Below, one piece after another: positions 576-5,400 of a DNA stretch of 5,400 bases. Location of the stretch: IMG/VR virus record IMGVR_UViG_2541047758_000012, one strand, 5' to 3'. The translations under genes were made by a program, and so were the position numbers. The notes beneath the pieces were generated by a model. That model searched no databases, was not told the origin of the DNA, and saw only the letters and a program-made list of their open reading frames with translations. The stretch comes from a virus. Taxonomy: Duplodnaviria; Heunggongvirae; Uroviricota; Caudoviricetes. The number at the start of each line of letters is the position of its first letter. The first letter of the stretch is position 1.

Positions 576-851
576 ATGAACAAAGAAAATGTCATTACCC
601 TGGACAATCCGGTCAAACGTGGTGAGCAGGTTATCGAACAGGTCACGCTGATGAAACCCAATGCCGGGACGCTGCGCGGTGTCAGTCTGGCTGCGGTTGC
701 AAACTCCGAAGTCGATGCACTGATTAAGGTGCTGCCGCGCATGACGGCACCGATGCTGACCGAGCAGGAAGTCGCCGCGCTGGAACTGCCTGACCTTGTG
801 GCGCTGGCCGGTAAGGTGGTCGGTTTTTTGTCGCCGAACTCGGTGCAGTGA
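576..851 (+). CDS. E: Tail assembly chaperone gpE, 91 aa (zero-frame product)
   Basis: ATG at 576 follows a purine-rich stretch (AGTGAGAAAACC), and the ORF stops at TGA 849-851. Size and position between the tube and tape measure genes match P2 gpE and are analogous to lambda G. It contains the slippery heptamer near its 3' end. Confidence 0.85.
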   Translation: MNKENVITLDNPVKRGEQVIEQVTLMKPNAGTLRGVSLAAVANSEVDALIKVLPRMTAPMLTEQEVAALELPDLVALAGKVVGFLSPNSVQ

Positions 852-1003
852 CGTTTCCAAAAAATCTCTCGGTCGATGACCTGATGGCGGATGTGGCAGT
901 GATATTTCACTGGCCGCCATCAGAACTGTATCCCATGAGCCTGACCGAACTCATCACATGGCGCGAAAAGGCGCTCCGGCGAAGCGGAAACACGAATGAG
1001 TAA
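576..1003 (+). CDS. E+E': Tail assembly chaperone E+E' fusion made by programmed -1 ribosomal frameshift; join(576..830, 830..1003), about 142 aa
   Basis: Slippery heptamer T_TTT_TTG at 824-830 lies in the E frame (GGT TTT TTG). After a -1 slip, reading continues from nt 830 (GTC GCC GAA CTC ...) for 57 codons to TAA at 1001-1003 without a stop, overlapping the T start codon at 996. This matches the known P2 E/E' arrangement, which is analogous to lambda G/GT. Confidence 0.75.
824..830 (+). other. -1 programmed ribosomal frameshift slippery heptamer TTTTTTG (X_XXY_YYZ)
   Basis: Read directly from the sequence: cggTTTTTTGtcg, with zero-frame codons TTT (825-827) and TTG (828-830). The -1 frame is open from here to 1003. 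Confidence 0.75.
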
Positions 1004-3443
1004 CAATGTAAAATTACAGGTATTGCTCAGGGCTGTTGACCAGGCATCCCGCCCGTTTAAATCCATCCGTACAGCGAGCAAATCGCTGTCGGGGGATATC
1101 CGGGAAACACAAAAATCACTGCGCGAGCTGAACGGTCACGCATCCCGTATTGAGGGATTTCGCAAGACCAGTGCACAGCTTGCCGTGACTGGTCATGCAC
1201 TTGAAAAGGCACGGCAGGAAGCTGAAGCCCTTGCCACACAGTTTAAAAACACCGAACGTCCGACCCGTGCTCAGGCGAAAGTCCTGGAATCCGCAAAGCG
1301 TGCGGCGGAGGACTTACAGGCGAAATATAACCGCCTGACAGATTCCGTTAAACGCCAGCAGCGGGAACTGGCCGCTGTGGGAATTAATACCCGCAATCTT
1401 GCACATGATGAGCAGGGACTGAAAAATCGTATCAGTGAAACCACCGCACAGCTTAACCGGCAGCGTGACGCGCTGGCGCGTGTCAGTGCGCAACAGGCAA
1501 AACTTAATGCAGTAAAACAGCGTTATCAGGCCGGAAAGGAACTGGCCGGAAATATGGCCTCAGTGGGCGCTGCCGGTGTGGGGATTGCTGCTGCGGGAAC
1601 GATGGCCGGAGTTAAGTTGCTGATGCCCGGTTATGAGTTTGCGCAGAAAAACTCAGAATTGCAGGCCGTGCTCGGTGTGGCAAAAGACTCCGCCGAAATG
1701 ACCGCACTCCGCAAACAGGCGCGCCAGCTCGGCGACAACACCGCCGCCTCAGCGGATGATGCGGCTGGTGCGCAGATTATCATTGCGAAAGCGGGTGGAG
1801 ATGCTGCGGCTATTCAGGCGGCAACGCCGGTAACACTGAATATGGCACTGGCGAATCAGCGGTCGATGGAAGAAAACGCGCAACTGTTGCTGGGGACTAA
1901 GGCATCCTTTCAACTGTCAAATGATAATGTCGCCCATATCGGCGACGTGCTCTCGACAACGATGAATAAATCGGCCGCTGATTTTCACGGAATGAGTGAT
2001 GCACTGACTTATGCCGGACCGGTGGCTAGGACTGCCGGTGTAAGCATTGAACAGGCCGCCGCAATGACAGGTGTGCTGCATGATGATAAAATTAGGGGTT
2101 CAATGGCGGGGACGGGGAGCCGTGCCGTGGTCAGCCGTTTGCAGGCACCGACGGGAAAAGCATGGGATGCACTCAAAGAGCTTGGCGTGAAAACCTCAGA
2201 CAACAAGGGAAACATGCGTCCGTTGTTTACCATTCTGAAAGAGATGCAGGCCAGCTTTGATAAACACAGGCTGGGAACGTCCCAGAAGGGTGAATACATT
2301 AAAACTATTTTCGGTGAGGAAGCCCTGAAATCAGCGAACGTTTTGCTGGCAGCGGCAGCAAGCGGAAAACTGGATAAGCTGACCGCCACGCTGAAAGCCT
2401 CGGACGGTAAAACGGAAGAGCTGGTTAAAATCATGCAGGATAACCTCGGCGGTGACTTTAAGGAGTTTCAGTCTGCTTATGAGGCGGTGGGGACTGACCT
2501 GTTTGACCAGCAGGAAGGCGCACTGCGTAATCTCACACAGACGGCCACAAAGTATGTGTTAAAACTCGATGGCTGGATCCAGAAAAACAAATCACTGGCG
2601 TCAACCATCGGCCTCATTGCCGGTGGCGCACTGGCGCTGACTGCTGTCATCGGTGCCATTGGCCTCGTAGCCTGGCCGGTTATCACTGGCATCAATGCCA
2701 TCATCGCGGCAGCAGGCGCAATGGGGGCAATCTTCACGACGGTTGGCAGTGCTGTTATGACGGCCATCGGGGCGATTAGCTGGCCGGTTGTGGCTGTGGT
2801 GGCCGCCATTGTCGCCGGGGCGTTGCTTATCCGTAAATACTGGGAGCCTGTCAGCGCATTCTTTGGCGGTGTGGTGGAAGGGCTGAAAGCGGCATTTGCG
2901 CCGGTGGGAGAACTGTTCACGCCACTGAAGCCGGTGTTTGACTGGCTGGGCGAAAAGTTACAGGCCGCGTGGCAGTGGTTTAAAAACCTGATTGCCCCGG
3001 TTAAAGCCACACAGGACACCCTGAACCGTTGCCGTGACACGGGCGTCATGTTCGGGCAGGCACTGGCTGACGCGTTGATGCTGCCGCTTAATGCGTTCAA
3101 CAAACTGCGCAGTGGTATTGACTGGGTACTGGAAAAACTCGGTGTTATCAACAAAGAGTCAGACACACTTGACCAGACCGCCGCAAGGACTAATGCCGCC
3201 ACGTATGGCACTGGTGGTTATATTCCGGCGACCAGCTCTTATGCAGGCTATCAGGCTTATCAGCCGGTCACGGCACCGGCTGGCCGCTCTTATGTGGACC
3301 AGAGTAAAAACGAATATCACATCAGCCTGACGGGAGGTACTGTGCAGGGGACACAGCTCGACCGCCAGTTACAGGATGCACTCGAAAAATATGAGCGGGA
3401 TAAACGAGCGCGCGCCCGTGCCAGCATGATGCATGACGGTTAA
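996..3443 (+). CDS. T: Tail tape measure protein gpT, 815 aa
   Basis: Long ORF immediately after the chaperone genes. The N-terminal about 180 aa is charged and rich in Q/R/A/L/E (coiled-coil-like); the middle is Ala/Gly-rich; a long hydrophobic Gly/Ala/Ile/Val-rich segment spans about aa 533-612. This is the standard tape measure architecture, and the length matches P2 gpT. The start codon overlaps the end of E'. Confidence 0.9.
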   Translation: MSNNVKLQVLLRAVDQASRPFKSIRTASKSLSGDIRETQKSLRELNGHASRIEGFRKTSAQLAVTGHALEKARQEAEALATQFKNTERPTRAQAKVLESAKRAAEDLQAKYNRLTDSVKRQQRELAAVGINTRNLAHDEQGLKNRISETTAQLNRQRDALARVSAQQAKLNAVKQRYQAGKELAGNMASVGAAGVGIAAAGTMAGVKLLMPGYEFAQKNSELQAVLGVAKDSAEMTALRKQARQLGDNTAASADDAAGAQIIIAKAGGDAAAIQAATPVTLNMALANQRSMEENAQLLLGTKASFQLSNDNVAHIGDVLSTTMNKSAADFHGMSDALTYAGPVARTAGVSIEQAAAMTGVLHDDKIRGSMAGTGSRAVVSRLQAPTGKAWDALKELGVKTSDNKGNMRPLFTILKEMQASFDKHRLGTSQKGEYIKTIFGEEALKSANVLLAAAASGKLDKLTATLKASDGKTEELVKIMQDNLGGDFKEFQSAYEAVGTDLFDQQEGALRNLTQTATKYVLKLDGWIQKNKSLASTIGLIAGGALALTAVIGAIGLVAWPVITGINAIIAAAGAMGAIFTTVGSAVMTAIGAISWPVVAVVAAIVAGALLIRKYWEPVSAFFGGVVEGLKAAFAPVGELFTPLKPVFDWLGEKLQAAWQWFKNLIAPVKATQDTLNRCRDTGVMFGQALADALMLPLNAFNKLRSGIDWVLEKLGVINKESDTLDQTAARTNAATYGTGGYIPATSSYAGYQAYQPVTAPAGRSYVDQSKNEYHISLTGGTVQGTQLDRQLQDALEKYERDKRARARASMMHDG

Positions 3444-3937: not shown

Positions 3938-5100
3938 TGCTGGATGCACTGACATTTGATGCAGGCAGTACGCTGACGCCGGATTACATGCTGATGCTCG
4001 ACAGCAGGGATATTACTGGCAATATCAGCGACCGTCTGATGAGCATGACCCTGACGGATAACCGGGGCTTTGAGGCTGACCAGCTTGATATTGAACTGAA
4101 CGATGCCGACGGGCAGGTCGGGCTGCCGGTTCGTGGCGCTGTCCTGACGGTGTATATCGGCTGGAAAGGTTTTGCCCTGGTATGCAAAGGGAAATTTACC
4201 GTTGATGAGGTTGAACACCGGGGCGCACCGGATGTGGTCACCATCCGCGCCCGGAGTGCAGATTTTCGCGGGACGCTCAATTCCCGCCGTGAAGGCTCAT
4301 GGCATGACACCACGCTCGGTGCGATTGTTGAGGCGATAGCCTCCCGTAACAGGCTGGAAGCCAGTGTCGCGCCGTCACTGGCCGGAATTAAAATCCCGCA
4401 CATCGACCAGTCGCAGGAGTCTGATGCGAAATTCCTGACCCGTCTTGCAGAACGCAACGGCGGTGAGGTGTCGGTAAAAATGGGAAAACTGTTGTTTCTC
4501 AAAGCGGGGCAGGGGGTGACGGCCAGCGGTAAAAAAATCCCGCAGGTCACCATAACCCGCAGCGACGGCGACCGCCATCATTTTGCGATTGCTGACCGTG
4601 GAGCCTATACCGGCGTAACGGCAAAGTGGTTACACACCAAAGACCCGAAGCCGCAAAAGCAGAAGGTAAAACTGAAACGCAAAAAGAAAGAGAAACACCT
4701 GCGCGCACTGGAGCACCCGAAAGCGAAACCAGTCACGCAGAAGAAAGCGCCAAAAGTACCGGAAGCGCGCGAAGGTGAATACATGGCTGGTGAGGCTGAC
4801 AATGTTTTTGCCCTGACTACGGTATATGCCACAAAAGCGCAGGCCATGCGCGCCGCTCAGGCGAAGTGGGATAAACTGCAACGGGGCGTTGCGGAGTTCT
4901 CCATCAGCCTGGCTACCGGTCGGGCAGATATTTACACGGAAACGCCGGTCAAAGTATCAGGCTTTAAGCGCGTCATAGACGAGCAGGACTGGACAATCAC
5001 TAAGGTGACACATTTTCTGAATAATAGCGGCTTCACGACGTCCTTAGAGCTTGAGGTCAGGCTTTCTGATGTGGAGTACGAAACAGAAGATGATGGGTGA
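3937..5100 (+). CDS. D: Tail protein gpD (Phage_GPD / late control gene D family; gp27/VgrG-N-like baseplate hub), 387 aa
   Basis: ATG at 3937 overlaps the U stop codon (ATAATG, 1-nt overlap); stop TGA at 5098-5100. Length and position match P2 gpD. It contains a lysine-rich low-complexity segment at about aa 234-278. Confidence 0.85.
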   Translation: MLDALTFDAGSTLTPDYMLMLDSRDITGNISDRLMSMTLTDNRGFEADQLDIELNDADGQVGLPVRGAVLTVYIGWKGFALVCKGKFTVDEVEHRGAPDVVTIRARSADFRGTLNSRREGSWHDTTLGAIVEAIASRNRLEASVAPSLAGIKIPHIDQSQESDAKFLTRLAERNGGEVSVKMGKLLFLKAGQGVTASGKKIPQVTITRSDGDRHHFAIADRGAYTGVTAKWLHTKDPKPQKQKVKLKRKKKEKHLRALEHPKAKPVTQKKAPKVPEAREGEYMAGEADNVFALTTVYATKAQAMRAAQAKWDKLQRGVAEFSISLATGRADIYTETPVKVSGFKRVIDEQDWTITKVTHFLNNSGFTTSLELEVRLSDVEYETEDDG

Positions 5101-5181: not shown

Positions 5182-5400
5182 ATGTTTCATTGTCCTTTAT
5201 GTCAGCATGCCGCACATGCGCGTACAAGTCGCTATATCACTGACACGACAAAAGAGCGTTATCACCAGTGTCAGAACGTGAATTGCAGCGCCACGTTCAT
5301 CACTTATGAGTCGGTACAGCGATACATTGTGAAGCCGGGAGAAGTCCACGCCGTAAGGCCGCACCCGTTGCCATCAGGGCAGCAAATTATGTGGATGTAA
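5182..5400 (+). CDS. ogr: Late gene transcriptional activator Ogr (Ogr/Delta zinc-finger family), 72 aa
   Basis: The translation from ATG 5182 (MFHCPLCQHAAHARTSRYITDTTKERYHQCQNVNCSATF...) has a Cys4 motif CX2C-X22-CX4C and matches P2 Ogr from memory. It is preceded by GAAGAGG about 9 nt upstream and stops at TAA 5398-5400. In-frame upstream starts exist (ATG 5146, TTG 5119), but the 72-aa form is the described protein. Confidence 0.85.
   Translation: MFHCPLCQHAAHARTSRYITDTTKERYHQCQNVNCSATFITYESVQRYIVKPGEVHAVRPHPLPSGQQIMWM

Follow-up and report, generated by a model that had tools for sequence, protein, structure and literature searches.

Within the window, by which we mean the whole 5,400-nucleotide stretch of DNA analyzed here, the overlapping E and E' reading frames are, as judged from their sequence, a near-identical prophage copy of the already described phage P2-type E/E+E' −1 frameshift, and the feature can be regarded as real, functional, and known. 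The best explanation of the arrangement is almost certainly a −1 ribosomal shift on U_UUU_UUG, which would make the fusion protein E+E' alongside E. Our additions to what is already described are modest and comprise family-wide statistics, the frozen codons AAG GUG, a clade-specific hairpin, and a conflict with reporter data for the heptamer. Beyond annotation and these stimulator candidates, the finding adds nothing new, and the call is correct but ordinary.

The E/E' frameshift site and its counterpart in phage P2

The shift site is the slippery heptamer T_TTT_TTG at positions 824-830 of the plus strand, the strand on which all features discussed here lie. Gene E starts at 576, and as (824-576) mod 3 equals 2, the E-frame codons across the heptamer are GGT (822-824), TTT (825-827), and TTG (828-830), which is the canonical X_XXY_YYZ register for a −1 shift. 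Six more sense codons (SPNSVQ) are read before TGA at 849-851, the seventh codon after the heptamer, ends E. In the −1 frame, 57 codons are open from G830 (VAELGAVTFPK...NTNE; complete translation, VAELGAVTFPKNLSVDDLMADVAVIFHWPPSELYPMSLTELITWREKALRRSGNTNE) to the TAA at 1001-1003, which overlaps gene T's start (ATG 996) by 8 nt, ATGAGTAA. An earlier reading made from the letters of the window (the sequence-only reading) had placed the heptamer in this register seven codons before the E stop and had followed the −1 frame from 830 for 57 codons to a stop 8 nt into T; every one of these coordinates is exact.

Upstream, a TAA at 812-814 closes the −1 frame, so that it extends back into E by 37 nt, to 815. 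A shift could therefore take place only in the 12 codons of 815-851, within which T_TTT_TTG is the single slippery heptamer. The bare string TTTTTTG is not rare, with 2 matches in the window against 1.4 expected. Unlike the bare string, the combination of heptamer, register, and long −1 ORF is rare: in-register heptamers number 4 per 1701 codons in the window genes, a long −1 ORF follows only the one at 824-830, and a −1 frame with 57 or more open codons is found at only 3% of the codon positions in these genes. Conservation in relatives, described below, removes the doubt that the combination occurred by chance. The other in-register heptamers are located in T, at 2153-2159 (G_GGA_AAA) and 2207-2213 (G_GGA_AAC), with −1 ORFs of 33 and 15 codons, respectively, and in D, at 4482-4488 (G_GGA_AAA), with a −1 ORF of 14 codons.

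The genes of the window follow the order FII-E-E'-T-U-D-ogr, so that the E/E' pair is flanked by the tail tube gene and the tape measure gene. FII (1-519), the major tail tube gene, matches Pfam Phage_tube with an E-value of 2.3e-60 and corresponds to gpFII in P2, and T (996-3443), the tape measure gene, is an 815-aa ORF that matches Pfam PhageMin_Tail (E-value, 1.4e-43) and corresponds to gpT. Gene E (576-851), in the 0 frame, encodes a 91-aa tail assembly chaperone recognized by Phage_TAC_7 (PF10109; E-value, 2.6e-12) and by PHROG 103, "tail protein" (E-value, 2.6e-45). The E' segment (830-1003; 57 codons plus TAA) matches Phage_P2_GpE (PF06528; E-value, 1.2e-21) and PHROG 1756. When E codons 1-85 and the E' segment are joined conceptually into the 142-aa E+E', Phage_TAC_7 falls on residues 7-85 and Phage_P2_GpE on residues 104-139, and the PHROG 1756 match crosses the E/E' junction, covering residues 82-142. 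At the level of its predicted protein, the −1 ORF is coding. Neither a solved structure nor an NCBIfam model matching E+E' was found. The late-gene activator gene ogr is complete at 5182-5400 (72 aa; NCBIfam PRK09678, E-value 4.9e-52), and the program-made ORF list extends it too far, to a 93-aa ORF starting at TTG 5119.

Between 500 and 1100, the window is 98.8% identical to P2, and 74 phage records match this segment at an identity of at least 95%. An alignment with P2 E+E', which the sequence-only reading had suggested as a check, gives 3 base differences over E/E', two of them synonymous and one replacing a single residue (N29 here, S29 in P2). The P2 GenBank record contains gpE, a joined CDS for gpE+E' that is described as "-1 frameshift; essential tail protein" with its amino terminus in common with gpE, and a feature marked "site of -1 translational frameshift." Mapped onto the window, these annotations fall at 576-851, at 576-1003, and at 831, the base after the heptamer, respectively. 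The earlier assignment of the pair to P2 E/E' is supported by this identity together with the join and the shift-site annotation, and its remark that the arrangement is not novel was justified, as the same join and site are already in the P2 record and papers.

The published description of P2 agrees with the window in detail. According to the passage of PMC3091744 that restates the original P2 work, a −1 shift at TTTTTTG gives the 91-aa E and the 142-aa E+E', and the P2 passage of PMC3931495 describes an E' that reaches 37 nt back into E, is without a ribosome binding site, and overlaps T. The product lengths of 91 and 142 aa and the 37-nt back-extension found in the window are the published values. 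That a −1 shift produces the fusion and that E' is essential for tails is attributed to Christie 2002 in the citing passages of PMC3091744, PMC3931495, and PMC5009743. P2 (Christie et al. 2002, J Bacteriol 184:6522; GenBank AF063097) and the window thus share the gene order FII-E-E'-T-U-D-ogr, the heptamer, the E-relative coordinates, the 91- and 142-aa products, and the 8-nt overlap with T, and differ in that the window belongs to a different isolate or prophage and is not P2 itself. Of 5426 complete E. coli genomes, 2153 contain prophage matches to the whole window, the best of them at 97.2% identity.

One of the two synonymous differences from P2, A859 (G in P2), lengthens an A-run. As a consequence, the E' frame reads CCA AAA AAT and contains an in-register A_AAA_AAT at 859-865, a second slippery-looking site that is specific to this copy relative to P2. 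It is probably inert, as the motif is weak in E. coli reporters.

Conservation among relatives and the origin of E'

A tblastn search of phage records with the fusion returned 418 records that match in two pieces, 401 of them with at least 80% query coverage. The loci set comprised 20 diverse Peduoviridae and 160 loci from bacterial genomes and IMG/VR, the latter retrieved with two sub-alignments. Of 178 loci scored against a fusion HMM, 176 have E' in the −1 frame with respect to E, and 175 of these 176 carry an in-register X_XXY_YYZ heptamer within the overlap. T_TTT_TTN stands in register in 170 loci, with G as the last base in 158, A in 5, T in 4, and C in 3, and these 170 were kept for the context analysis. 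Clade A denotes the P2/186 clade, represented by 27 non-redundant loci, the window among them; all 27 use GGT as the codon that provides the X base. Close packing against the tape measure gene is also widespread, with the E' stop overlapping the T start or separated from it by at most 9 nt in 59 of 69 non-redundant loci, and with an overlap of exactly 8 nt in 31 of the 69.

Two lineages have replaced the T-run. The aligned position is occupied by A_AAT_TTT in Xuanwuvirus P88 (locus L013, about 552-558), and in Mannheimia phage PHL101 (locus L016, about 582-588) the lambda heptamer, G_GGA_AAG, lies further downstream. Such replacement points to selection on ribosomal slipperiness rather than on the T-run sequence. 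PHL101 also has GAAGAGGA about 14 nt upstream of its heptamer. Other loci depart from the rule in their reading frames: E and E' are fused in frame in L022 (Symbiopectobacterium, 741-746) and in L162 (752-758, with a T7 run), L155 (740-744) has a T5 run and a second 1-nt deletion, and L120 and L121 (about 775-798) are shifted at an upstream G-run. These loci look like homopolymer indels, whether assembly errors or decaying prophages. An in-frame E-E' fusion, if genuine, would yield only E+E'.

The RefSeq annotation implies another origin for E', namely, that it is a small gene in its own right, with translation initiating at GTG 848 and no fusion being made. The ORF list does contain a 51-aa GTG ORF at 848-1003, in E. 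coli prophages PGAP gives exactly this interval as "GpE family phage tail protein," and a separate CDS is annotated in the same way in several phage records. The supposed start is, however, not conserved, as the −1-frame codon at 848 is variously GTG, GTA, ATA, TTA, CTG, CTA, or ACA in the 27 clade-A loci, and on this ground initiation at GTG 848 and the independent gene that depends on it are ruled out. There is also no Shine-Dalgarno sequence at a usable distance, and where PMC3091744 and PMC3931495 deal with E', they describe it as made without a ribosome binding site, as an extension of E. An independent gene would, in addition, leave unexplained why the heptamer is kept in register in 175 of 176 loci, and we assign this origin a negligible probability.

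The fusion could alternatively arise during transcription, if RNA polymerase stuttered on the T6 run and added one U, which would give E+E' with a Phe-Phe junction. The homopolymer run is kept at 6 to 7 T in about 170 loci, and the fact that U_UUU_UUG is a weak ribosomal shifter in reporters could be taken in the same direction, as could the in-frame fusion of the one T7 locus (L162). A run of six is nevertheless short compared with the reviewed bacterial cases, which are described on runs of about 9 A or T, and the run always stands in the X_XXY_YYZ register. The lineages that use A_AAT_TTT or G_GGA_AAG have ribosomal slippery heptamers instead of long homopolymers, a replacement that argues against any mechanism needing a homopolymer, and the P2 work is cited as translational frameshifting in the passages of PMC5009743, PMC3091744, and PMC3931495 that refer to it. 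Transcriptional slippage is in our view very improbable, and a −1 ribosomal shift on U_UUU_UUG is the reading preferred here.

A weak heptamer and its sequence context

The shift rate in P2 is reportedly about 10%. In an E. coli reporter series, U_UUU_UUG shifted at 0.118% on its own, at 0.247% when combined with the IS911 stimulator, and at 0.765% when combined with the IS3 pseudoknot, which is near background and about ten-fold below U_UUU_UUC or U_UUU_UUU with the pseudoknot (Sharma et al. 2014, Table S3). A heptamer this poor in reporters does not by itself explain a shift of several percent, and because it is so close to background, we looked for context signals. No element was found at the classical stimulator distance on either side of the heptamer. 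To our knowledge, tail-chaperone frameshifts are usually said to be without stimulators.

A Shine-Dalgarno-like element, AAGGTGGTC (813-821), lies 5' of the heptamer and is proposed here as a candidate modulator of the shift. Its duplex with GAUCACCUCCUUA of the 16S 3' tail has a dG of −14 kcal/mol, and the spacer to the heptamer is 2 nt, or 4-5 nt when measured from the GGUGG core. In clade A, the motif has the form AAGGTG(G/A)T(C/T). A peak of anti-Shine-Dalgarno affinity (a duplex of −5 kcal/mol or stronger in the interval starting at −15) is present in 27 of 27 non-redundant clade-A loci, and the motif is stronger than a synonymous-codon null in both clade A (mean z −1.5) and clade B (mean z −1.06). 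Codon choice beneath the motif is nearly fixed in clade A, where AAG encodes Lys in 20 of 21 loci and GTG encodes Val in 24 of 27; apart from these and GGT, no synonymous outlier occurs over the last 50 codons of E. Naive binomial p values for the AAG/GTG bias are about 1e-6 to 1e-10, but because the sequences are related, they overstate the significance and are to be read as upper bounds on it. In other clades, GAGGTG stands at the corresponding position or GGGGG/GGAGG is found 8-12 nt upstream, and GGR serves as the first Gly codon in 16 of 30 loci, where 25% would be expected.

When UUU is in the P site, AAGGUG occupies −12 to −7, which is the normal Shine-Dalgarno position (AAGGUGRUC, −12 to −4). 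It could be speculated from this codon usage that the frozen AAG GUG constitutes a 16S-complementary context signal, a suggestion that is new here. The −1-frame stop TAA at 812-814 was considered as the cause of the AAG conservation and rejected, as the stop is not conserved and relatives have GGC AAG or GGG AAG. A Shine-Dalgarno-like stimulator of the dnaX or IS type, 9-14 nt 5' of the heptamer as in the reviewed spacing for stimulation of −1 shifts, was not found in the window, where the spacing is 2-5 nt.

Folding of the RNA downstream of the heptamer, another check suggested by the sequence-only reading, gives a weak hairpin nearby and a strong one that begins 50 nt away. The weak one, CGCCG-AACU-CGGUG at 832-845 (5 bp; dG −6.0; z −1.6), is the only candidate within 30 nt of the heptamer, in agreement with the earlier statement that no strong hairpin lies within this distance. 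Although 76% of its cells pair in clade A, it is weak, lies in a dual-coded stretch, has no real covariation, and starts 1 nt past the heptamer, and it is probably not a stimulator. The strong hairpin, at 881-923 inside E', consists of a 10-bp outer stem, CUGAUGGCGG/CCGCCAUCAG, and a 6-bp inner stem, with a dG of −25.2 kcal/mol (z −5.3; 0 of 200 shuffles as stable). Its outer stem is 94.8% paired in the 27 non-redundant clade-A loci, and the synonymous sites involved in pairing are biased in this clade (TCA, 22/27; CCA/CCG, 24/27; GCG, 23/27). A hairpin of this type is absent from clade B despite the same or a similar peptide (mean z −0.8, versus −4.0 in clade A). As it starts 50 nt past the heptamer, it is not a classical stimulator, and no stable 3' stem-loop or pseudoknot of the dnaX or IS type was found a few nucleotides past the heptamer.

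Further structures were tried and rejected. A long-range helix proposed by RNAalifold, 830-837/873-880, reaches 91% pairing but is matched by 184 of 500 shuffles. A terminator-like 5' hairpin followed by the T-run, at 803-824 (dG −10.5; z −1.9), has its central pairs broken in 10-14 of the 27 loci, shows covariation at or below the shuffled level, and does not span the frozen AAG. Taken as a whole, 790-1010 is not unusually structured (z −0.78). Apart from the shift site, the FII-E intergenic region contains a perfect 9-bp hairpin, CCGGUCAGC-CUG-GCUGACCGG, at 527-547 with no T-run after it, and 515-580 has a folding energy of −19.4 kcal/mol (z −2.9). The annotation of phage 186 has a "tI partial terminator of pJ transcript" at the corresponding location, and on this basis the 527-547 hairpin may set the ratio of tube to chaperone/tape-measure transcripts.

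It is conceivable, as a variant of the ribosomal shift, that the P2/186 lineage drives the nearly inert U_UUU_UUG to several percent through unconventional context, by pairing of AAGGUGRUC with 16S rRNA while UUU and UUG occupy the P and A sites, by the 43-nt hairpin at 881-923, or by both. We hold this variant to be possible but doubtful. The weakness of the heptamer in reporters favors a contribution from context, and the frozen AAG (20/21) and GTG (24/27), which with GGT are the only outliers among 50 codons in clade A, lie just 5' of the heptamer, where affinity for the anti-Shine-Dalgarno sequence peaks above the synonymous-codon null in both clades. The relatedness of the sequences tempers the p values behind this bias, and the spacer of 2-5 nt in the window is outside the 9-14 nt reported for −1 stimulation, whereas the frequent GGGGG or GGAGG of clade B, 8-12 nt upstream, overlaps that range. 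For the hairpin, the z of −5.3 and the 94.8% pairing of the outer stem in clade A are set against its beginning 50 nt past the heptamer and against weak covariation, with 2 cells changed on both sides and a score reached by 8 of 500 shuffles. In addition, PMC3091744, where it summarizes earlier authors, reports no stimulatory structure in P2. If context does act in this way, a Shine-Dalgarno sequence would be affecting −1 frameshifting at short spacing, and a stimulator would for the first time be defined for a phage tail-chaperone frameshift. The frozen AAG GUG and the clade-specific hairpin are concrete candidates that could explain how a heptamer giving 0.1-0.8% in reporters works in P2.

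Proposed role, annotation, and relation to known systems

The −1 ribosomal shift on U_UUU_UUG would proceed as follows. Ribosomes translating gene E would reach GGU UUU UUG (822-830), where, on U_UUU_UUG, a minority would slip back by one base and tRNA-Phe would pair again with UUU at 824-826. These ribosomes would resume from G830 and read 57 codons in the −1 frame to give the 142-aa E+E', and the majority would remain in frame and stop at 851 to give the 91-aa E. The junction residue could be Leu if slippage is tandem (VVGFLVAELGAVTFPK), or Phe if it occurs in the P site with the A site empty (VVGFFVAELGAVTFPK); the latter junction would also fit an extra U in the mRNA. E is a tail assembly chaperone and the likely counterpart of lambda gpG, and E+E', with the same N-terminal chaperone domain followed by the GpE domain, is the likely counterpart of lambda gpGT. 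By analogy, many copies of E and few of E+E' could coat the tape measure protein T, with the E' domain recruiting the tube protein FII. The efficiency of the shift would then set the chaperone ratio, as suggested by the work on lambda.

The end of E' may have a second function. Shifted ribosomes would stop at 1001-1003, inside the T start (ATGAGTAA), and as this stop lies within the start of T, they may also feed T translation by coupling. Within the E' end/T start junction (980-1003), the codons CGA AGC GGA (AAC) at 980-990 are synonymously frozen in the P2/186 clade (CGA, 22/27; AGC, 24/27; GGA, 23/27). This stretch, 6-16 nt ahead of the T start, is probably a weak ribosome binding site for T. 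The proximity of the E' stop to the T start, taken together with these frozen codons, makes coupling of T to shifted ribosomes plausible.

For annotation, the consequences are direct. In E. coli CFS3246 (locus L182), RefSeq/PGAP gives E' as a separate 51-aa CDS over the interval equivalent to 848-1003, with no ribosomal-slippage join, and as a result the 142-aa product is missing from the annotation of this genome and probably from that of many others. The separate 51-aa call at 848-1003 confirms the earlier observation that a simple ORF track misses a real product here. Routine pipelines still miss E+E', which the P2 literature cited above describes as essential, at a locus whose window matches 2153 of the 5426 complete E. 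coli genomes.

Among the Peduoviridae, the two-frame arrangement is common, as illustrated by orf51/orf52 (gene H) of phage 186 and by the E/E' pairs of KS5, KL3, Smp131, RE-2010, and others. Phage 186 and the other pairs resemble the window in their T_TTT_TTG and in their tight packing against the tape-measure start, and 186 also carries the AAGGTGAT motif and a hairpin of the 881-923 type. In all of these, E is 45-75% identical in protein sequence, and the 0-frame tail past the heptamer is 5-22 codons long. Members outside the P2/186 clade lack the hairpin, and their Shine-Dalgarno-like motif is often a G-run 8-12 nt upstream. The cassettes of E. coli dnaX and of IS3/IS911-type elements are alike in making a −1 shift on X_XXY_YYZ with a 5' Shine-Dalgarno-like sequence, but theirs is 9-14 nt upstream and is accompanied by a stem-loop or pseudoknot after a short spacer, whereas the window has its motif 2-5 nt upstream and no supported structure at their 3' distance.

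Phage lambda is a siphovirus with a non-contractile tail. Its gpG/gpGT pair (Levin 1993; Xu 2004, 2013, 2014) likewise lies between the major tail protein and tape measure genes. The lambda heptamer, G_GGA_AAG, is unlike T_TTT_TTG of the window, and the reported shift efficiency is lower, with the relevant passage of PMC5009743 placing the P2-type shift 2-3 fold above lambda G-T. E and lambda G belong to different Pfam chaperone families, and BLASTP of E against gpG gave no alignment at an E-value of up to 100. E/E+E' is therefore an analogue of lambda G/GT by arrangement and not a member at the sequence level. As an analogy, the comparison with lambda drawn in the sequence-only reading holds well: the genes come in the same order, the heptamer precedes the G stop by 5 codons and the E stop by 6, and the end of GT runs 8 nt into the start of H (ATGGCTGA), just as the E' stop overlaps the start of T by 8 nt in the window (ATGAGTAA).
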